A stretch of 64,000 nucleotides of DNA from an uncultured Ignavibacteria bacterium (GCA_964592145.1 CAZQBX010000002.1:33634-97633); one strand, 5' to 3'. Counted from the first letter of the stretch, positions 50,889 through 61,397 are shown. The notes: generated from the letters alone by a model not told the origin. A program made the numbers and translations.

Positions 50889-50995
50889 TGACCTGCTCCA
50901 GAAACAGTCCGTTTAGACGCCGAGTTTCCGGCGCCGTTGACAGCCCGCAGAATATAGACTTGGGCGGGGAATGTCAAGCGGGAGACAGGCTGAAC

Positions 50996-51301
50996 TTATG
51001 TCCTGTGCGGTTTGAAGGCAAACTCTCGGATGCTCATCGACTCGGGTACCGGATATACGCCGGCGCCAGCGCAAAGTGGGCAAGGGCTCTTGTCAGACTG
51101 GCGAATCTCGATCATGCCGGATCCTCTACAAGCGTAACAGTCCTTGCCGGAAGTATCCTGTCCCTTGCCAAAGCAGTACATGCAGACGTGGGCGTGGTTC
51201 GGCGTTAGGCAGCGGTTGTCGACCCAGCCGCGCCCGAGGCATTCCGGGCAGGTTTTTGGCGGCCCTTCACCGGATCGCGGCCGATGCTTCTCGGTTGACA
51301 T
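50996..51301 (-). CDS. small DnaJ-type zinc-finger protein (4x CxxCxGxG)
   Basis: CPECLGRG, CMYCFGKG, CYACRGSG, CPLCAGAG; the last gene of the hydrogenase operon. The start is uncertain (ATG at 51301 or the ORF-track 51328). Confidence 0.6.
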   Translation of the reverse strand: MSTEKHRPRSGEGPPKTCPECLGRGWVDNRCLTPNHAHVCMYCFGKGQDTSGKDCYACRGSGMIEIRQSDKSPCPLCAGAGVYPVPESMSIREFAFKPHRT

Positions 51302-51782
51302 AGATTTTCTCTCCTGTATGCAATGCAAGCCATTGATCGATGCTCGCCAACGCCGGTTCGATAGCAGCCATTACCTTGGCGGTCATGGTCTCGCTCAGCG
51401 TAGTCACATCAGCGACCTCAACGGCAAGCACATCAATATGCTTCGGCATTTGGTATCCAAGCTGACTCCCCAACTTTAACGCCGTCGGGAGACTCATCTG
51501 GTGGCTGGAGGTGAGATTTCGCGATGGTGTCAGTGTCCCCATTGGGAAGAAGTGTAGGGTTCCAGGCGGAACGCCGCCGGTCACGATACTGTCAATGAGT
51601 AGGACTTTGCTTCTTCTGTTGAGCAAATCCAGCAGGCCGAATCCGGCAACCGGAGCGAATATTACCTCGACCCGGTCACACTCGTGCCGTCTTGTGTGCA
51701 GTATCCCGGCAATTGTCGGTCCGAACGAATCGTCTGACAGAACTTCGTTTCCAAGACAAAGAATCAAGAATGGCTTCAACAT
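51267..51782 (-). CDS. [NiFe]-hydrogenase maturation endopeptidase (HyaD/HycI/FrhD family)
   Basis: LGNEVLSDDSFGP and the DxxH region; overlaps the mvhA stop. Confidence 0.85.
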   Translation of the reverse strand: MLKPFLILCLGNEVLSDDSFGPTIAGILHTRRHECDRVEVIFAPVAGFGLLDLLNRRSKVLLIDSIVTGGVPPGTLHFFPMGTLTPSRNLTSSHQMSLPTALKLGSQLGYQMPKHIDVLAVEVADVTTLSETMTAKVMAAIEPALASIDQWLALHTGEKIYVNREASAAIR

Positions 51783-53260
51783 TGCCTTTTGACGACCTCG
51801 ATTACTTCGCCACTCTCCGCAGAATGAACAACAATCTCCAGAGGCATCTCACCCGGAAGCGAGTGCGTCGCGCAACCAAAACATGGATCGTAAGCGCGAA
51901 AAGCCATCTCAATCCGATTGAGTACGCCGTCGGTAATGGTCGTACCCTTCTTGATCAACCCCTCGGCGGCGCGCTTGATTGACATCGTAATCGGCGCATT
52001 GTTGTTGGTCGTACCGACAATGAGATTTGCTTCGGTGACGATTCCATTCTGATCGGTCTTGTAGTGGTGCGTCAAGGTACCGCGCGGCGCTTCGACGGTG
52101 CCGACGCCCTCGCCAACGATGCCTGTCGGAGGTTCGAGGATGTGATCGGAAGTTATCTCGTCATCCTTGGCTTGCTCCAAAGTGGCTTCGCAGGCAAACA
52201 TCAACTCGACTACGCGCGCCCAGTGTGTTGCCAACGTAGAGTTGACCGGTATCTTCCCAGTGCGATCTCCAGTCAACGTTTCAAAGTAGCGTTCGTACTC
52301 GGCGTGTGCGAGCGGTGTCGCCATACCATCGGCGACATTGAGTCGAGCCAGCGGCGTTGCTTTGTAAACACCAGAGTCCATTCCATCGACGAACCCCTTC
52401 CAACCGACTTTCTTCAAGTAAGGGTACTTGAGATAAGAATAGGGCTCGACGCGCTCTTCAACATACTGGAGATAGTCCTTCGGCTCGTATTTGGCATGTT
52501 CCGATCCGTCGGGTGCTGTTACACGTACTTTGCCGTCATAGAAGGTGACGTGATTGTTGTCATCAACCAGTCCCATATTGTAGGTTTGGTGCGCATAGGA
52601 ATCAGAAAGAATCATTTCGAGATAAGTCTTGTTCGCAAGAACGATATCATTCAAAACCTGAATCGTGAACTTGGCGAACTCGACCATTTCTTCACCGATC
52701 TTGATGATTTCCTGTTGCTCTTCTTTGGTGACGCGTTTGCTCATTCCGCCTGGTAAGGCGGTGACCGGGTGCACTTTCTTACCGCCGATGATCTCGATCA
52801 CACGCTGACCGCGGGCCCGCTGGGCAATGACCTTCTTGCCGACATCCAGACCTACCTTGGCGATTACACCGAGGATATTGCGCTCAGCTTTCGGTGCGTC
52901 GGGACCACAGACGAAGTCCGGCCCGCCCAGAGCATAAAAGTGAGTTGTGTGATCACCTGCATAAAACGCGTTGTAGACTAATTCGCGCAATTTGCGCGCC
53001 GCCGACGGAATAGTAACGCCGTATACGGCATCAGCGGCCTTTGCCGACGCCATGTGATGTGCGTCAGGGCAGACACCGCAGATTCGGGTGGTAATGCGCG
53101 CCAATTCTTCGACCGGCCGCCCCTGACAGAACTTCTCGAAACCGCGAAGTTCCGGAACCTGGAAGTAACAGTTGGCCAACTCACCATCGTCGTTGATGAA
53201 CAGGTGAATCTTGCCGTGCCCCTCAAGGCGCGTGATCGGATCGATGACAATGCTCTTCAT
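51776..53260 (-). CDS. mvhA: [NiFe]-hydrogenase large subunit, Mvh/group-3 type
   Basis: N-terminal RICGVC and C-terminal DPCFGCATH Ni-Fe ligands with a short post-His tail for protease cleavage. Confidence 0.93.
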   Translation of the reverse strand: MKSIVIDPITRLEGHGKIHLFINDDGELANCYFQVPELRGFEKFCQGRPVEELARITTRICGVCPDAHHMASAKAADAVYGVTIPSAARKLRELVYNAFYAGDHTTHFYALGGPDFVCGPDAPKAERNILGVIAKVGLDVGKKVIAQRARGQRVIEIIGGKKVHPVTALPGGMSKRVTKEEQQEIIKIGEEMVEFAKFTIQVLNDIVLANKTYLEMILSDSYAHQTYNMGLVDDNNHVTFYDGKVRVTAPDGSEHAKYEPKDYLQYVEERVEPYSYLKYPYLKKVGWKGFVDGMDSGVYKATPLARLNVADGMATPLAHAEYERYFETLTGDRTGKIPVNSTLATHWARVVELMFACEATLEQAKDDEITSDHILEPPTGIVGEGVGTVEAPRGTLTHHYKTDQNGIVTEANLIVGTTNNNAPITMSIKRAAEGLIKKGTTITDGVLNRIEMAFRAYDPCFGCATHSLPGEMPLEIVVHSAESGEVIEVVKRQC

Positions 53261-54228
53261 ACTTGCACCCTCCGCAGTAGCGACCCGGCCATGCTGAAGC
53301 GATAGAATGTTCCCAGCGGATCGGGAATGGTGTTGATGATCTGTTCGATCTCTTCCGGATCAGTAGAATCGATCACGCTGGCCAGAGCCGAGACCATCTT
53401 GGCACCCTGGTCATTGATGTTTGACGGGAGCCCATAGCAGCCGCGACACGGCATTCCCGCTTTGACGCATTTGGCTCCACAGCCGGAACGAGTTGCCGGT
53501 CCAAGACAGACGATGCCTTGCTCCATCAGACATAGATTCGGATCAGTGACCTTGGCAAACGGGCGTGTGAAGGATTTGATCTTCTTGATATTGCGTTCGC
53601 GCGGGCACTCGTCACAACAGCTTTTGTCGGTTGCGCCGAGAACTGTCCCCTTGGGAGGCAGTGGCTTGTTGTTCTGGAGAATGTCGATTACCGCCATGAC
53701 CGCGTTGACTATTTGATCGGACTGGGGCGGACAGCCGGGAATGTAGTAGTCAACCTCAACTACCTGATCGAGTGATCGAACTGTATTCCAGAACTTCGGA
53801 ATGGTAATGGTCCCTTCGGAAACCTGAACTTCCGGCTGCGGTTCGACCTTGCCACCATTGGCGAGCGAAGGTGATTTGTGATAGACGTAATCGAGGATTA
53901 TCTCTTTGTTGAAGAAGTTCGCCAACGCCGGAATGCACCCTTCGCCGGCACAACTGCCGAAGGCCACCAGGACCACCGATTTTTGGCGCAGCAGTTCGGC
54001 GAGTTCGTAGTTTTCACTAGTCCGAATTGCGCCGTTGAAGAGCGTTAGCGTGATTGACTTGTCTTCCATTGCGCGGACATCGTCGTACTTGGTATCCATC
54101 GCGCAGGGCCAGAAAACGACATCAAAGAAATTCGCCACATCGAGGATCTTCTCTTCGATATCGAGAATGGATATGTCGCAGCCGCCGCATGAGGAGGCCC
54201 AGTATATGGCAAGTTTAGGTTTAGACAT
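53257..54228 (-). CDS. mvhG: [NiFe]-hydrogenase small subunit, MvhG type
   Basis: [23 protein letters not shown] proximal cluster motif. The start ATG at 54228 sits 7 nt after GGAGGTG; the ORF-track start at 54249 is not needed. Confidence 0.9.
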
Positions 54229-54670
54229 GTTGATGCACCTCCTCGGCATTGGGGTCGAAGTTGTAGTCGTGCAATTTCAATGGTCCCAAGGCGCGAATCT
54301 GTTCCGTGAACTCGGTGATGACCTCCTGGAACCGGCCGCCTTCCGAAGCGGAAACCCATTCGAGACGCATCCGGTTGCGAGCGATGCCTAATTCCTGAAG
54401 TAACAGCTGCGTCAGGGGCATTCGACGCATGCACTTGTAGTTTCCTTCGATGTAGTGACAATCGCCGGGATGACAGCCGCAAATCAACACACCGTCGGCG
54501 CCGCGGCGGAAGGCATCGAGGATAAATGCCGGATCGACGCGGCCGGAGCACATCACGCGAATGCTGGTCACATTGGGCGGATAGTGCATGCGTGCAGTGC
54601 CGGCGAGATCGGCGCCGGTATAGCTGCACCAGTTGCAGAGAAAGCCGACAATTTTCGGTTCAAAGCTCAT
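54221..54670 (-). CDS. mvhD: methyl-viologen-reducing hydrogenase delta subunit MvhD (FlpD domain)
   Basis: CNWCSY...CSGRV...[10 protein letters not shown] cysteine pattern of MvhD. Confidence 0.9.
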
Positions 54671-56427
54671 GACAATATCCCCTCAATCTGCGCATAGATT
54701 TGTTCATCGGTGAAGTGGCGTCCCTTGATCGCTCCTGAAGGACAAGCCGCGACACAGGTACCGCAGGCCTTGCACAGCGCGGAGTTGACGTGGCTGATCT
54801 TCTTTTCGAGATCAAAATCGATCGCGTGATATGGACACATATCATTACAGATTTTGCAGCCGGAACAAAGCTCGTCCTGGACCTCCGCGTATGTGGCGTC
54901 CATCAGGACTTCGCCCTGGCACAATAGCCTCATGACCTGTGCGGCAGCTGCCGAGCCTTGCGCCACAGAGTCGGGAATATCCTTTGCACCCTGGCAGACA
55001 CCGGCGAGGAAGATTCCCTCGGTTGAAGTTGATACCGGCGCCAGCTTGGGATGGGATTCAATAAACCAGCCATCGGCCCCGACCGAGATGTTGAAACGCC
55101 GGGCAATGTCCTTGGCATCGGCCCGTGCCTCAAGGGCGGTACACAGTACGATCATGTCAACTGGAACTTCGCGGTGCTTGCCGATCATCGTGTCTTCGCA
55201 GCGAACGATAAGTGCGCCTTCGGCTTTCTGTGATTGGCTGGCCGGGACAACTTCGGCACCTTTGCCGCGGATGACATTGCCGCCTTCATCGAGAATTCTC
55301 TGGTAGAATTCCTCGTAACCTTTTCCGAATGAGCGCATGTCGATATAGAACTGATAAACATCAGCCTTGGTCTTCTCCATGATCAAGTGCGAGAACTTGA
55401 GGGCATACATGCAGCAAACGCGGCTGCAGTACTTGTGGTGATTTTCGTCGCGACTGCCGATGCAGTGGATGATTGCTATCCGGCGCGGTTCTTCCCCATT
55501 TTCCAGACAGATCTTTCCACCGGTCGGACCGGCGGCATTGTTCATCTTCTCAAACTCAATGGAGGATACGACGTTGGGATAACGGCCATAACCGTACTGC
55601 TTCATCGGCGTTGGGTCGAAATCGTCAAAGCCGGTTGCCAGGACGACCGCGCCAACTTCGACTTCCTCGAAATCTGCGCGATCACCGTAGTCGATGCAGT
55701 CCTTGGGGCATACCTTCTCGCAGATCATACACCCGCCGGTCTTGTAGTGGATGCAGTTTTCGCGTACGATATAAGGTACGTTCGGGACTGCTTGTCGAAA
55801 TGGCAGTGTGATAGCGGCGTTGGGACCCAGGTTGAGTTCGCGGTGATTGATGACCCGCTCCTCAATGTCCTGCATCTTGATATGCCCGGTCGGGCAGTAT
55901 TTGGCACAGGCACCGCAGAGGATGCAAGCCTCGGAGTCCAGATCGAACGGCGTCGATACATCTCGATCCTGGCCACGATTGATAAAGGTCAGCGCGTGAG
56001 CACCGACAACTTCATCGCAGATGCGAACGCAGAGTCCGCAGAGAATGCAGGTGTAGGTTCCATGTCCCCAGCGTGGTTCCTTGACCCCGAACTTCGCCGC
56101 ATAGTGCTCCAGCAACGGAACCGGCGCGCAGTTGGCCATCAACATTTCCAGATTTGTGCGACGCGCATTAACTACGCGCGGCGTTTCGGTGAAGATTTCC
56201 AGACCGTCCCAGGCGGGATAATTGCAGGCCGTTACGATCTTGCTCCAACCTTTGTTGTTGCGAGCCTCCACGACACAGATTCGGCAGGCAGCATACGGAC
56301 TCATGAACGGGTAGTAGCAAAGAGTCGGAATCTCGATTCCCAACGACTGTGCGGCTCCCAGAATGTATGAGCCTTCTTCAACCTCGATTGCCTGGCCATC
56401 GATCTTAATCTTAACTGTTGCCATCAT
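54667..56427 (-). CDS. fusion: HoxU/NuoG-N-terminal-like [2Fe-2S]/[4Fe-4S] ferredoxin module + C-terminal half of HdrA
   Basis: Residues 1 to about 230 carry 2Fe-2S ([15 protein letters not shown]), a His-type 4Fe-4S ([16 protein letters not shown]) and two 4Fe-4S motifs ([21 protein letters not shown]). The rest matches the HdrA TrxR-like second half ([32 protein letters not shown]) plus the C-terminal 2x[4Fe-4S] ([24 protein letters not shown]). Confidence 0.8.
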
Positions 56428-56433
56428 TGTCTC

Positions 56434-58449
56434 CTAGGCCACACTCGCCGGCTGTTTTGCGGTTTCCTTGGGCTGCCAAAGTTCGCGCGCCCGCTGTTGG
56501 ATCTTGTCACCTTCGCCGCGCTTGACACGCTTGATTGAGTTGTAACGACAAATCTGGTAACAGGCGCCACATTGGATGCACTTGTCCTGAATTATCATAT
56601 GCAGGCGTTTGGGTTCGCCGACGATAGCGTTGGTCGGACAGGGTTTGACGCAGGCATGGCAACCTGTGCAGGTATTGTCGATGGCGTGCGCCACCAGTTC
56701 CTTGCAGACACCGGCCGGACAGCGTTTATCGCGAACGTGTGCGATGTATTCCTGGCGGAAATAACGGATTGTGGACAGCACCGGATTCGGTGCTGAACCA
56801 CCGAGTTGGCATAAACTGGTGTCGATGATGACCTGCGACAGTTCCTCGAGGTGTTCGATGTCCTCCATCGTGCCGTTGCCTTCGCAGATCTTGTTGAGAA
56901 TGTTCAGCATCACGACAATGCCTTCACGGCATGGCACGCATTTGCCGCACGATTCCTCCTGCAGGAACTTCAGAAAGTACCGTGCGACATCGACCATGCA
57001 GGAATCTTCATCCATTACGATCATGCCGCCTGAGCCCATCATCGAACCGGCTTTAGTGAGTTCATCGAAGTCGACCGGTAAGTCGAGCAGGCTGATCGGT
57101 TCATCCTCCTCGCGAATGTCGCCGTGCGCAACCATACTGGCGTGTACGGACGATTCGGAAGTTTCGACAATGAGAGTACCGCCTGATGGACCACCGGTTT
57201 GCACAGCTTTGAATCGTTTCTTATTAGGGACGCCGCCGCCGATGTCGTAAAGAATCTCGCGCAGGGTAATTCCCATTGGAACCTCGACCAGACCGGTGTT
57301 GTTGATCTTGCCCGTTAATGCAAATACCTTGGTGCCTTTGGAATTGGGGGTTCCGATCGAGGCGAAATATTCGGCGCCCTTCTCAATGATGACCGGGACG
57401 TTCGCCCAAGTTTCGACATTATTCAGATTTGAGGGTTTCTCCCAGAGTCCGGCTTCCACTGTGTGAATATACTTCGCCCGCGGTTCACCGACTTTCCCTT
57501 CAAGCGATGCCATTAAGGCGGTCGATTCACCGCAGACAAATGCGCCACCACCCCGGGATATTTCGATCTCGAAGTTGAACCCGGTCCCAAGAATATTCTG
57601 CCCGATCAGACCGTACTCACGCGCCTGATTCATCGCAATGGTCAGATTCTTAACCGCCAGGGGATATTCGTTGCGGACATAGACGAATCCGTCGTTACTA
57701 CCGATCGCAAACGCGCCGATGACCATCCCCTCAATGACCATGTGGGGATTGCCTTCAAGCAGGGAGCGATCCATGAATGCTCCGGGGTCGCCTTCGTCGG
57801 CATTGCAGATAACGTATTTGGGTTGGCCTTTGGCATTGCGGCAGGACTCCCACTTCCGGCCGGCTGGATACCCGCCGCCGCCACGACCACGCAATCCGGA
57901 TTTTTTGACTTCATCTATGATCTGCGTCGGAGCCATTTGGGTTAGCGCCTTCACCATTGCCTGGTATCCACCAAGGAGAATGTAGTCGTTGATCGAGGTC
58001 GGATCCATGTATCCGTTCCTGCCAAATATCAAACGCATCTGCTTCTTATAGAATGGTATGTCCTTTTCAAGTTTGATGACTTGCTGCGATTGTGGATCGC
58101 GATAGAGCAGTTTATTCACCAGATGGCCGCCCTTGATAGTCTGTTCCCAGATCAGCTTGGCATCCGCGGGGCGGACTTTCTGATAGAAGATGCCCTGTGG
58201 TTGGACGACAACCAACGGTCCGCGTTCGCAGAATCCGTGACAACCTGTTGTCTTGATCTCAACCTCGTTCTCCAGATGGTCATTGACGATTTCTTCTCGG
58301 AAAACCTTTGTGACGGCTTCACAACCACACGCCAGGCATCCAGTGCCGGCGCAGATGGTCAGGACCGTTTTGTTCGCATTGCGGTTGCTCTTGATCTTTT
58401 CGCGCAACTTTGTCAAGTCGCCAGGCGATTGAAGCTTTACGTCTTGCAT
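56434..58449 (-). CDS. NuoF-like NADH-binding FMN flavoprotein with N-terminal [2Fe-2S] and C-terminal 2x[4Fe-4S] (HydB/HndC/HoxF type)
   Basis: GRGGGGYPAGRKWE FMN/NADH site, SLBB domain, N-terminal thioredoxin-like Cys cluster (CAGTGCLACGCE), C-terminal CTGCHACVKPCP / CIQCGACYQICR. Confidence 0.92.
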   Translation of the reverse strand: MQDVKLQSPGDLTKLREKIKSNRNANKTVLTICAGTGCLACGCEAVTKVFREEIVNDHLENEVEIKTTGCHGFCERGPLVVVQPQGIFYQKVRPADAKLIWEQTIKGGHLVNKLLYRDPQSQQVIKLEKDIPFYKKQMRLIFGRNGYMDPTSINDYILLGGYQAMVKALTQMAPTQIIDEVKKSGLRGRGGGGYPAGRKWESCRNAKGQPKYVICNADEGDPGAFMDRSLLEGNPHMVIEGMVIGAFAIGSNDGFVYVRNEYPLAVKNLTIAMNQAREYGLIGQNILGTGFNFEIEISRGGGAFVCGESTALMASLEGKVGEPRAKYIHTVEAGLWEKPSNLNNVETWANVPVIIEKGAEYFASIGTPNSKGTKVFALTGKINNTGLVEVPMGITLREILYDIGGGVPNKKRFKAVQTGGPSGGTLIVETSESSVHASMVAHGDIREEDEPISLLDLPVDFDELTKAGSMMGSGGMIVMDEDSCMVDVARYFLKFLQEESCGKCVPCREGIVVMLNILNKICEGNGTMEDIEHLEELSQVIIDTSLCQLGGSAPNPVLSTIRYFRQEYIAHVRDKRCPAGVCKELVAHAIDNTCTGCHACVKPCPTNAIVGEPKRLHMIIQDKCIQCGACYQICRYNSIKRVKRGEGDKIQQRARELWQPKETAKQPASVA

Positions 58450-58970
58450 TACTTGGCCTCCCCTGACTTATGAACTCGTCCGGCGCGAACGTCGTTGAGC
58501 ATCGTTTCGGTCTTCGAGACGGTCATGTTACCAAAGTAAACTTCGTTGGCGGTCACGAGTGGTCCGAGGGCGCAGGCACCGAGACAGTTCACGGTCTCAA
58601 GGCTGATTTCGCCGTCGGGAGTGGTTTCTCCCGATTTGATCTTCAGGTCACGTTCCAGCTTGTCAACGATTACGGTCGCTTGCCGAACATGACAGGCGGT
58701 GCCGGTACAAACACAGATGTGGTTTTTACCTTTTGGCTTGAGGCTGAAGGTGCGATAGAAGGTTGCAACCCCATAAATCTGTGCAAGCGGCAATTTCATC
58801 GTTTTCGAGACAGCGCGCATCGCTGACTCCGGCAGATAACGATAGTGCTTTTGAATGTCCTGAAGGATCATGATGAGTGCCGACGCCTTGGCGCCATACT
58901 CGGCCACAATTTGATCGATCGCTTCCTGGACGTCATACTCTTCTTGCGGAGCCGCAGGTAATGTGGTCAT
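58449..58970 (-). CDS. NuoE-like thioredoxin-fold [2Fe-2S] subunit (HydC/HoxE/HndA type)
   Basis: CVCTGTACHV...CLGACALGP motif. ATG at 58970 follows GGAGGTGA by 8 nt; the ORF-track start at 59063 is a spurious extension. Confidence 0.88.
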   Translation of the reverse strand: MTTLPAAPQEEYDVQEAIDQIVAEYGAKASALIMILQDIQKHYRYLPESAMRAVSKTMKLPLAQIYGVATFYRTFSLKPKGKNHICVCTGTACHVRQATVIVDKLERDLKIKSGETTPDGEISLETVNCLGACALGPLVTANEVYFGNMTVSKTETMLNDVRAGRVHKSGEAK

Positions 58971-59932
58971 GATTGCTTCACCTCCGCAGGCAGTAGGTCT
59001 TTTTCGGGCATTGGTTGAGCCCCTGTGAGAACCGTCAAGTCGTGCTTTGGCCCCATTCGCCATTTGTCTTGAACGTCGAGTAGGCGCCCTTCACGATAGA
59101 CCCGGTCGCCCAGGATCATGCGGCGACGAGTTGGTGTCGGCACGCTGGGGCAGGCTTCGAAGCAGGCACCGCAGCTGTTGCATTTTGTGGTGTCCACATA
59201 CCGGGGTTTCTTCTTAAGTTTGACCGTAAAATTCCCCAAATACCCGGTCACCCCTTCGACTTCAGTCCAAGTCATTAGGCGAATGTTCGGGTGTTTTCCG
59301 ACTGCAACCATTTTCGGAGTCAGAATACAAGCGGCGCAGTCGAGCGTTGGAAACGTCTTATCAAACTGCGCCATATGACCGCCGATCGTGGTTTCCTTTT
59401 CGACGAGGATAACTTTGAAGCCGGCATCCGCAATTTGTAGGGCTGCTTCAATCCCGGCTATTCCGCCGCCGACGATGAGTACCTGCTGTTTGATCGGGAC
59501 GCGGCGCATGTCGAGCGGTTCATGAAGCCTGACTCTGGCAACCGCCGCCCGCACCAGTGAGATCGCCTTGGCCGTGGCAGCTTTAGGATCGAGAGTTACC
59601 CAGCTTACCTGTTCGCGAATGTTCGCCATTTCAAAGAGGTAGCGATTGAGTTGAGCGCGTTCGCAGGCGTTACGAAATGTCGGTTCATGCATCAGCGGAC
59701 TGCAGGCCGCGACCACGACGCGATTGAGTTTGAGTTCGCGGATGTCTTTCTGAATCAGTTCTTGTCCCGGTTCCGAGCACATGAACTTGTATTGCCTGGC
59801 GACAACCACGTTGGGAAGCGTGCTGGCGATCTCGGCGACCTTACCCACATCAACCATTTTGGCGATGTTGTTTCCGCAGTGGCAGACATAGACGCCGACG
59901 CGGATTTCCGAGCCGTTTTGCGACTGGTTCAT
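58967..59932 (-). CDS. N-terminal half of heterodisulfide reductase subunit A (HdrA): Cys-cluster domain + first part of FAD domain + one ferredoxin motif
   Basis: IRVGVYVCHCGNNIA...CSEPGQ...VVVAACSP, FAD dinucleotide fold VLIVGGGIAGIEAAL...LDCAACILTP, then CNSCGACFEACP. It ends without the second half of the TrxR-like fold. Confidence 0.8.
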   Translation of the reverse strand: MNQSQNGSEIRVGVYVCHCGNNIAKMVDVGKVAEIASTLPNVVVARQYKFMCSEPGQELIQKDIRELKLNRVVVAACSPLMHEPTFRNACERAQLNRYLFEMANIREQVSWVTLDPKAATAKAISLVRAAVARVRLHEPLDMRRVPIKQQVLIVGGGIAGIEAALQIADAGFKVILVEKETTIGGHMAQFDKTFPTLDCAACILTPKMVAVGKHPNIRLMTWTEVEGVTGYLGNFTVKLKKKPRYVDTTKCNSCGACFEACPSVPTPTRRRMILGDRVYREGRLLDVQDKWRMGPKHDLTVLTGAQPMPEKDLLPAEVKQS

Positions 59933-60813
59933 ACGGCCACCACTCCTTTCAACGCTATTAGCTTGCTTGGTTCGATAAGCAACTTATCGAGTCCGAGTTC
60001 CGCAGGCGAAAGTCCCAGTGCGATTCCGACCAAGTGCGTGAAGTATATGACCGGTATGTTGAAATCCGTCCTATACTGCGCGTTGACTTTGCCCTGAAAG
60101 CCCTCAAGATTCACGTGGCAGAGGGGGCAGGCAGTGGCGATGACGTCACCGCCGTTCTCCGCGGCTGCTTGCAGAAGTTCATGACAGAGTTTCAGGGCAA
60201 TCTGCTCGTCGGTGGTCATTAGCATTCCACCGCAGCAGCGTACTTTGGGCGGGTAGTGTACCGACTCGGCGCCGAGGGCACGGATCAGGGTGTCCATTGT
60301 CTGGGGATCATCTTTGTCGTCGAAGTAACCGACCGGCCGAACGATCTGACAACCGTAGTATGGGGCGACTTTAAGGCCGGTGAGCGGCCGCGTGACTTTT
60401 GTCTTGAGCACTTCAATTCCAACGTCATTGACGATGATATCAAGCGGATGTCGCACGTTGACTGGTTTGGTATAGGACATCCCCGCCGCAGCGAGAGCCT
60501 CGTTGATCTTCTTGCCTTCCTTGGGATCCCAGGCAATGTGTCGATTGGTTTTGCGAAGTATCGTGTAGCAGCTACTGCAGGGTGCGCAGATTTCGAGACC
60601 CATTTCCTGCGCCAGCGCCAGATTACGCGCACTGATCGAATAGCCGACGATTTTCTTGGCGGACATGTACATTGTCGCGCCACAGCAGTTCCAGTCCTCG
60701 ATTTCGCGAAGCCCAATTCCAAGCGATTTGAAGACAGCTCGCGTCGACTTGTCATATGGGCTGGCCGTATGCTCGAGACTACAACCAGGGTAGTAAGCAT
60801 ATTCTTGCATCAC
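59929..60813 (-). CDS. hdrB: heterodisulfide reductase subunit B (two CCG domains)
   Basis: YYPGCS / WNCCG and PYYGCQ / RCCGG motifs. Confidence 0.92.
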   Translation of the reverse strand: MMQEYAYYPGCSLEHTASPYDKSTRAVFKSLGIGLREIEDWNCCGATMYMSAKKIVGYSISARNLALAQEMGLEICAPCSSCYTILRKTNRHIAWDPKEGKKINEALAAAGMSYTKPVNVRHPLDIIVNDVGIEVLKTKVTRPLTGLKVAPYYGCQIVRPVGYFDDKDDPQTMDTLIRALGAESVHYPPKVRCCGGMLMTTDEQIALKLCHELLQAAAENGGDVIATACPLCHVNLEGFQGKVNAQYRTDFNIPVIYFTHLVGIALGLSPAELGLDKLLIEPSKLIALKGVVAV

Positions 60814-61397
60814 TGTTCTCCAAACTCGTTAGCTTTTTTGATGATTGCCTGGATTTGATTGACGCGCCTGATGCGTTTCGGAAGCAGCCCCATTCTGCCG
60901 CGTCGAATCATTGCAATCCCATAACCTGATGTCGTGAATAGTTTCACAATGTGTGAGCGCATAAAGTACTTGATGCCGAGGCCGAGTTCATAATTGCGTC
61001 CGTACTTATAGACGTTGTTCATAAATGTCGAGGAGAGGCTATGAACTGGGAAGTTGGCGGGATAGATCTTACGATGCATCGCGATTCGCTTCAGTGCATA
61101 CATTGTGTCTGTGACCTTGATTCCGGAAGGACATCTGACGGTACAAGCATAGCATGATGCGCAAATCCAGATCGCCTTGCTGCGCAGGATGTCCTCCAAG
61201 CGGCCGGCTCTGAACATTGCGATGGTTTGGCGTGGCGTGATGTCCATAAACTGCGATACCGGGCAGGTTCCCGTGCAGGTTCCGCACTGAAGACACTTCT
61301 TGATCTTGTGTCCGTCAGGAAATGAGTCGATTTGTTCCCAAAAAGCGGCGTGCAGTTCAGCCTCTGTGGGCGAAGTGGTCTTGATTGCTTCAGTCAT
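60810..61397 (-). CDS. hdrC: heterodisulfide reductase subunit C (2x[4Fe-4S])
   Basis: CLQCGTCTGTCP and CASCYACTVRCP. Confidence 0.9.
   Translation of the reverse strand: MTEAIKTTSPTEAELHAAFWEQIDSFPDGHKIKKCLQCGTCTGTCPVSQFMDITPRQTIAMFRAGRLEDILRSKAIWICASCYACTVRCPSGIKVTDTMYALKRIAMHRKIYPANFPVHSLSSTFMNNVYKYGRNYELGLGIKYFMRSHIVKLFTTSGYGIAMIRRGRMGLLPKRIRRVNQIQAIIKKANEFGEQ

Follow-up and report, generated by a model that had tools for sequence, protein, structure and literature searches.

Why does the operon of a [NiFe] hydrogenase end in a gene for a small protein built almost entirely of DnaJ-type zinc-finger repeats, and what might such a protein do there? The question is raised by a 64,000-nucleotide stretch of DNA from an uncultured Ignavibacteria bacterium (GCA_964592145.1 CAZQBX010000002.1:33634-97633), which we call the window; positions are counted from its first letter, and every feature of the window given below lies on the minus strand. 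An initial annotation, made from the sequence alone, had described a stand-alone DnaJ-type zinc-finger protein as the terminal gene of a hydrogenase operon and had suggested that it could be an assembly chaperone or a redox partner. We find that the gene is real, that it closes an hdr/mvh-type [NiFe]-hydrogenase operon, and that it keeps its place directly behind the maturation protease gene in nearly all the informative loci that carry it. Based on this gene context, we propose that the zinc finger is a candidate holdase or assembly factor for the hydrogenase.

Identification of the zinc-finger gene

The open reading frames (ORFs) listed for the window include one of 110 amino acids (50996..51328) that opens with TTG. 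The frame annotated initially therefore exists, on the minus strand; what changes is its start, which is most likely ATG 51301 and not TTG 51328. We adopt the ATG because the N-termini of 31 zinc-finger homologues align at its methionine and because a Shine-Dalgarno-like AGGAG (51311..51315; sequence ACAGGAGAGAAAATCTATG) lies 9 nucleotides (nt) 5' of it, within the protease gene; on the same two grounds the TTG is rejected. The predicted coding sequence spans 50996..51301, with its stop codon at 50996-50998, and encodes 101 amino acids.

A search of 5.8 billion proteins returned 31 homologue clusters, 61-87% identical and all 94-108 amino acids long, and a profile built on distant members recovered 97 clusters. 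The window gene differs from its counterparts in the three nearest loci by 29-43 synonymous and 5-13 non-synonymous changes, for a ratio of non-synonymous to synonymous change (dN/dS) of 0.03-0.05. The zinc-finger ORF is a real gene under strong purifying selection. That the frame arose by chance in the operon's 3' untranslated region, an outcome that the initial annotation had named as fatal to its reading, has the small size of the frame and its overlap with the protease gene in its favor and nothing else; we exclude it as vanishingly improbable because of the roughly 100 conserved homologue clusters, the dN/dS, the invariant cysteines and the Shine-Dalgarno sequence.

A DnaJ-type zinc finger without a J-domain

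As first described, the protein of about 100 amino acids consists almost wholly of four CxxCxGxG repeats. A six-frame translation of the window contains exactly four matches to this motif, all of them within the zinc-finger ORF. They begin at C18 (C-P-E-C-L-G-R-G; 51227..51250), C40 (C-M-Y-C-F-G-K-G; 51161..51184), C55 (C-Y-A-C-R-G-S-G; 51116..51139) and C74 (C-P-L-C-A-G-A-G, followed by a conserved VYPVP; 51059..51082). The cysteines of motif 1 are invariant or nearly so, and motifs 2 to 4 come from both the motif scan and the homologue alignment. A ninth cysteine, Cys31 (codon 51209..51211), lies outside the CxxC motifs in the context WVDNRC. In 32 sequences the eight CxxC cysteines and C31 never vary; in 105, each is either invariant or conserved to at least 90%.

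The assignment to the Pfam family DnaJ_CXXCXGXG (PF00684) holds for the family as a whole, in that 105 of 105 aligned members match at E<=1e-3 (best E 2e-12); the window copy stops just short of the curated cut-off, with 32.0 bits (E 1.5e-7) against a gathering score of 32.7. Two homologues lie above this value (P0183, 39.5; P0034, 34.7) and another lies below it (P0040, 26.7). No NCBIfam family is matched by the window protein above its own cut-off; TIGR02349 (DnaJ_bact) reaches 26.4 bits of the 377 required, and only across profile positions 160-216, the cysteine-rich (CR) segment. Pfam detects no J-domain (PF00226) in the window protein, and neither Pfam nor NCBIfam detects any further domain beyond the CR-type region, which leaves a zinc finger that is indeed stand-alone. 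The same two databases return no Hyp family match, consistent with the annotation of the protein as something other than a standard Hyp accessory factor. No curated family in Pfam or NCBIfam names the protein, and the source annotations of its homologues are generic ('RecJ-like exonuclease', 'DnaJ-class molecular chaperone', 'hypothetical').

Among solved structures, the best sequence match is the CR domain of Escherichia coli DnaJ (1EXK, 4e-8 in a PDB profile search). Matches to TAL effectors in the same search are repeat artefacts without a significant domain, and we discarded them. Type I DnaJ/Hsp40 proteins carry the same signature in their CR domain (PF00684, 1EXK), but they also have a J-domain (HPD), a G/F region and a C-terminal substrate-binding domain, none of which is present in the window protein. 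The alignments differ in register as well: in both the Pfam and the PDB alignments, motifs 1-3 of the window protein fall onto motifs 2-4 of DnaJ, and motif 4 falls weakly onto DnaJ motif 1. In DnaJ, the Zn sites are formed by pairing of motifs 1 and 4 and of motifs 2 and 3, and the domain that results is V-shaped. The window protein, which is expected to bind two Zn, has a shifted register, and this shift suggests that neighboring motifs (1+2, 3+4) would form the two sites as tandem knuckles, unlike the nested pairing of DnaJ.

Conservation of the gene behind the maturation protease

The initial annotation had staked its reading on conservation of this ORF next to hydrogenase operons, and such conservation is what we observe. 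A context scan with one genome per GTDB species yielded 42 true loci (L004-L045; locus numbers carry the prefix L throughout), of which 41 are informative; in the remaining one (L014) a contig end cuts the locus, and hypA and hypB lie downstream. A HycI-type protease and MvhA are encoded directly upstream of the zinc finger in 40 of the 41 informative loci, with the zinc finger right after the protease, and L039 is the only one of them that stands alone. Distant homologues of 76-78 amino acids, 41-47% identical to the window protein, occupy this slot too, next to the protease gene of a hydrogenase of like type. Beyond the 42-locus scan, the link to the operon is seen in L049-L051, L052, L055 and L056.

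The constant neighbors of the zinc finger are MvhD-MvhG-MvhA-HycI. Other parts of the surroundings come and go: NuoEF is absent in L028, L030 and L032, and Hdr genes were not seen upstream in L011, L038 and L040. The gene downstream of the zinc finger varies by lineage; in about 19 loci (including L050), it is hypA/B or the series hypF-C-D-E-(A)-B. Since the zinc finger thus co-occurs with a full hyp set, it would be an additional factor, one confined to a single lineage. Across loci, the zinc finger varies less than the protease (mean p-distance 0.35 versus 0.47), and in L018 identity to the window amounts to 64% for the zinc finger, 55% for MvhA and 28% for HycI.

In the window, the last nucleotides of the protease gene are also the first of the zinc-finger gene, an overlap of 35 nt (51267..51301) as counted from the ATG and of 62 nt as counted from the TTG, the two values given initially. 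Across related loci the tight juxtaposition of the two genes is kept; the length of the overlap is not. An overlap of 35 nt is the commonest (10 distinct loci, L001 being a duplicate of L008), 4 nt is found in 8, and most others measure 8-41 nt. The full set of sizes is 4, 8, 11, 20, 29-41 and 86-110 nt, the last range being represented by four loci, and six loci have gaps of 2-118 nt. A conserved 35-nt overlap is rejected because the lengths vary, and so is a programmed frameshift that would fuse protease and zinc finger, since relative frames vary too and gaps occur. The 35-nt overlap suggests that translation of the two genes is coupled, and a junction that is tight but variable fits such coupling, not a conserved frameshift.

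Among the 50%-identity cluster representatives of a library of 1.84 billion proteins, only 18 score below 1e-10; the weaker matches are generic CxxCxGxG repeat proteins, and 344 of these, searched for informative domain fusions, gave only generic multi-CxxCxGxG proteins. The hosts, which appear to be sediment organisms, are metagenome-assembled genomes (MAGs) labelled mostly as Zixibacteria, Ignavibacteria, Calditrichota and KSB1, and some labels are inconsistent. The loci concerned are L004, L005, L023, L026, L029 and L040: Ignavibacteria is the label of the locus with 95% identity to the window and Zixibacteria that of the one with 90%, and several loci with the same operon bear the labels Alphaproteobacteria or Puniceispirillum. 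These inconsistencies point to mislabelling or mis-binning as their likely source.

Proposed role in hydrogenase maturation

Gene context favors a role in maturation or assembly. We propose that the zinc finger is a lineage-specific, ATP-independent holdase or assembly factor in [NiFe]-hydrogenase maturation, a reading to which we assign a probability of about one half. Zinc finger and protease would be made together by coupled translation. One possibility is that the zinc finger would then hold the unprocessed large subunit, or else an assembly intermediate of the Fe-S-rich multi-subunit complex, and this holding would last until the large subunit has been processed and the small subunit has docked.

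Such a role would parallel that of BSD2 and ZnJ2, J-domain-less DnaJ-like zinc-finger proteins that serve Rubisco. We favor a holdase or assembly factor because these two proteins are the closest functional analogues. According to PMC5818400, J-domain-less proteins with four CxxCxGxG motifs act as target-specific holding chaperones in chloroplasts, and BSD2 and ZnJ2 (6EKB, 6EKC, 8ILB; PMC5818400) share with the window protein the four motifs and the lack of a J-domain. Holdases of this type are defined by Zn binding and by ATP-independent protection of a specific client from aggregation, for which PMC5818400 gives the assays. The likeness has its bounds. BSD2 and ZnJ2 target Rubisco in the chloroplast, whereas the window protein is bacterial, its presumed target is a hydrogenase and its holdase role is putative; the BSD2 profile (PF25436, BSD2_CRD) is not matched by the window protein; and the window family has a different motif spacing, the extra conserved Cys31 and a conserved WVDNRC hairpin. 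A more specific form of the proposal is tentative, and we rate it below the general one: a dedicated BSD2-like [NiFe]-hydrogenase maturation factor that would act alongside the endopeptidase, either on the precursor of the large subunit or on a late intermediate of the Hdr/NuoEF-coupled Mvh-type enzyme, its zinc knuckles permuted relative to the DnaJ CR domain. Zinc-finger proteins of this kind were already known; what is new is one tied to a bacterial [NiFe] hydrogenase. A full-text search of the literature library used returned no relevant paper that joins a hydrogenase with a DnaJ-like zinc finger or a CXXCXGXG protein.

Several observations weigh against this proposal, some of which concern where the gene is missing. 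A metagenome scan with the large subunit returned 80 loci, and those whose large subunit reaches ~79% identity to that of the window have the zinc finger (L052, L055, L056), with the one exception given below. None of the approximately 60 loci with a large subunit 61-69% identical carries it, most of them having a protease; in five of these (L058, L062, L064, L065, L081), the covered flank contains a NuoF match. The zinc finger is also missing from L054 (L054:2012-3075) despite a large subunit 83% and a protease 59% identical, the protease there being followed by ~550 nt without a sizeable ORF and then by an unrelated gene. The absence from the 61-69% loci and from L054 marks the zinc finger as an addition restricted to one lineage; enzymes closely related to this one dispense with it or have it replaced. 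Conversely, two copies stand alone, with no hydrogenase gene within 10 kb (L039:10022-10690 and, from an NCBI assembly, L002:10001-10309). The L039 frame extends beyond the usual end to 222 amino acids, overlapping a gene on the opposite strand, and this copy may have lost its stop codon or be decaying.

Other points on the same side concern the operon and the protein. The large subunit ends in similar C-terminal extensions whether or not a locus has the zinc finger. A mirror-tree and partial-correlation search across 18 operons was weak and uninformative (r 0.15-0.41), with the highest values for the N-terminal part of HdrA, HycI and MvhD. The AlphaFold2 (AF2) model of the zinc finger is of moderate confidence (predicted local distance difference test, pLDDT, 71; predicted template modeling score, pTM, 0.41), and a fold search with it returned no significant match; superposition of the model on 1EXK and 2CTT is poor, with a full-length TM score of about 0.25. 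Moreover, gene position alone does not tell whether the protein is a maturation factor, a subunit that binds loosely or a regulator, and these alternatives are weighed below.

Alternative functions

One alternative, unlikely in our judgment, would make the zinc finger a small subunit of the mature hydrogenase, with a structural or electron-transfer role, in one version with cysteine pairs that bind Fe in the manner of rubredoxin and not Zn. Its gene accompanies the structural genes in 40 of the 41 loci and is better conserved than that of the protease, and two CxxC motifs might, in principle, coordinate Fe between them. Accessory genes of the rubredoxin type, such as HupI and HoxR, occur in other hydrogenase operons; a rubredoxin has one Fe(Cys)4 site and an aromatic core. 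Against a subunit, the gene sits after the protease, outside the structural genes; no rubredoxin family of Pfam is matched at E<=0.01, and the rubredoxin-type HupI/HoxR profiles are likewise unmatched; the profile and fold matches obtained are all to Zn-binding DnaJ-type modules; and related enzymes with the same subunit set do without the zinc finger. We know of no such subunit in the solved Hdr-Mvh and NiFe-HydABCSL complexes, the best matches to the large subunit.

An equally doubtful alternative is that the protein modulates the endopeptidase by protein-protein binding, as Anti-TRAP does TRAP, and delays or targets the C-terminal cleavage of the large subunit until Ni has been inserted. 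Anti-TRAP (RtpA) of Bacillus (PF15777; 2BX9, 3LD0) aligns with the window protein through motifs 3 and 4, with a superposition of 35 residues at 2.2 Å. Each is a small protein that binds Zn, predictably so in the window case, and would act by binding another protein. Anti-TRAP, however, has 53 amino acids, a single Zn site and a context in tryptophan regulation, and the window protein has four motifs, not two, and falls short of both family cut-offs (28.6 versus 32 for PF15777; 28.7 versus 65 for the NCBIfam RtpA family, NF058604). The distance matrices of zinc finger and protease are weakly correlated (r 0.31, partial 0.19), and the proteases of related operons work without the zinc finger, all of which argues against a modulator.

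Less probable still is a thiol-disulfide oxidoreductase or redox-repair factor, with an activity such as is reported for the DnaJ CR domain and ZnJ6, that would protect or repair the many cysteines ligating the Fe-S, CCG and NiFe sites. The four CxxC motifs and the conserved ninth cysteine would suit such an activity, and oxidoreductase activity of DnaJ-like zinc-finger proteins is described in PMC4428491 and PMC7865324. On the other hand, ZnJ2 without its cysteines kept its holding activity, and the protein itself formed no disulfides, as reported in PMC5818400. The window protein appears cytoplasmic, which, with hosts that are apparently sediment organisms, also counts against redox repair, and the fixed slot between protease and hyp genes points to biogenesis, not to general redox repair.

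Last comes a metal (Ni or Zn) chaperone that would replace or assist HypA, which we regard as quite improbable: the zinc finger adjoins hypA and hypB in several loci, and the structural Zn site of HypA consists of two CxxC pairs, but the window protein matches no HypA family in Pfam (PF01155) or NCBIfam, its variable N-terminus holds no conserved Ni site of the Met-His-Glu type, and since a bona fide hypA adjoins in many loci, the zinc finger does not replace HypA. It does share with HypA-F, the HycI/HybD protease and HupI/HoxR a place among protease and hyp genes, and it is cysteine-rich and presumably metal-binding like the Zn domain of HypA and the zinc fingers of HypF; yet it matches the profile of none of these families, HypA/HybF included.

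Organization of the hydrogenase operon

The holdase or assembly role proposed here would be exercised on an enzyme whose genes fill the region upstream of the zinc finger. In order of transcription, the operon encodes HdrC, HdrB, the N-terminal part of HdrA, a NuoE-like and a NuoF-like protein, a HoxU-like/HdrA C-terminal fusion, MvhD, the small subunit, the large subunit, the protease and the zinc finger, and the order of its upstream electron-transfer genes is shared with related loci. The maturation endopeptidase immediately upstream of the zinc finger (51267..51782) belongs to the HycI/HybD superfamily (PF01750, 40.7 bits; TIGR00072, 96.5 bits; both above their cut-offs). It is preceded by the [NiFe]-hydrogenase large subunit of MvhA/Vhu type (51776..53260), the small subunit (53257-54249), an MvhD-like subunit (54221-54670) and the electron-transfer genes of the upstream part (54667..61397).

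Among solved complexes, the window large subunit is closest to MvhA of Hdr-Mvh (5ODC, 7e-117) and to the large subunit of 7T2R (1.5e-109), which we take to be the NiFe-HydABCSL electron-bifurcating hydrogenase. After DPCFGCATH the large subunit carries a 28-residue C-terminal extension, which is the substrate of the protease. Extensions of 25-30 residues after DPCxxCxxH are well conserved with and without the zinc-finger gene (LPGxMPLEV.I.D..G...; 51776-51862 in the window), and many end in, or just short of, a cysteine.

HdrA appears both split and interrupted. A 321-residue ORF (58967-59932) corresponds to positions 1-256 of the HdrA2 profile and is followed by the NuoE-like and NuoF-like genes; a 586-residue ORF (54667-56427) fuses a HoxU/NuoG-like N-terminus to HdrA2 positions 259-640; and MvhD (54221-54670) matches positions 647-774. 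This arrangement (54221-59932 in the window) recurs in about 30 of the loci L001-L045 with the upstream flank covered. The operon has the look of a hybrid between Hdr-Mvh and an NAD-linked module of NuoEF/HydABC type. Taken at their longest, the ORFs for the HdrA N-terminal part and the NuoE-like protein overlap by 97 nt (58967-59063); in relatives NuoE is called shorter, at 165-184 amino acids, so that NuoE in the window probably starts further downstream.

The gene on the far side of the zinc finger encodes an MtaB/MiaB-like radical-SAM protein. A promoter-like site, TTGACA-17-TATTCT (50949..50977; consensus match only), lies 3' of the zinc-finger stop codon and 5' of this gene, which is consistent with a hydrogenase operon that ends at the zinc finger. 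A search for an intrinsic terminator after the zinc-finger gene on this strand found none. A tblastn search of the whole 64 kb with the six L050 Hyp proteins likewise gave no homologue of hypA-F, so the hyp genes must lie elsewhere in the genome, unlike in the roughly 19 related loci.

The slot next to the protease has other occupants elsewhere. In Mvh-type operons that lack the zinc finger, it often holds a conserved protein of about 150 amino acids, a stand-alone cyclic-nucleotide-binding domain that starts MISPELLRRYPFF (L070:6161-6625, L099:2081-2539 and about 14 more loci among L061-L130). Different lineages thus seem to put different small proteins behind the protease. In L013 the genes for the large subunit and the protease are separated by an extra ORF of 269 residues whose N-terminus is hydrophobic (L013:8600-9409), and similar gaps of 0.8-1.1 kb separate these genes in L055 and L056.

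Significance

The maturation of [NiFe] hydrogenases is thought to be well catalogued, with HypA-F, a specific endopeptidase and a few extras for O2-tolerant enzymes. To these the zinc finger would add a further candidate accessory factor, one with a fixed place between the protease and hyp genes throughout a lineage of uncultured sediment bacteria. It is only moderately surprising, being a lineage-restricted protein without which related enzymes manage and whose function is read from context. Heterologous expression of Hdr/NuoEF-linked, probably electron-bifurcating hydrogenases may nevertheless need it. If it is a chaperone, then the J-domain-less DnaJ-type zinc finger dedicated to one enzyme, known mainly from chloroplasts, would extend to a bacterial metalloenzyme. 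The protein would then be the first bacterial client-specific DnaJ-like zinc-finger chaperone, added to the Hyp and protease set that matures these enzymes.
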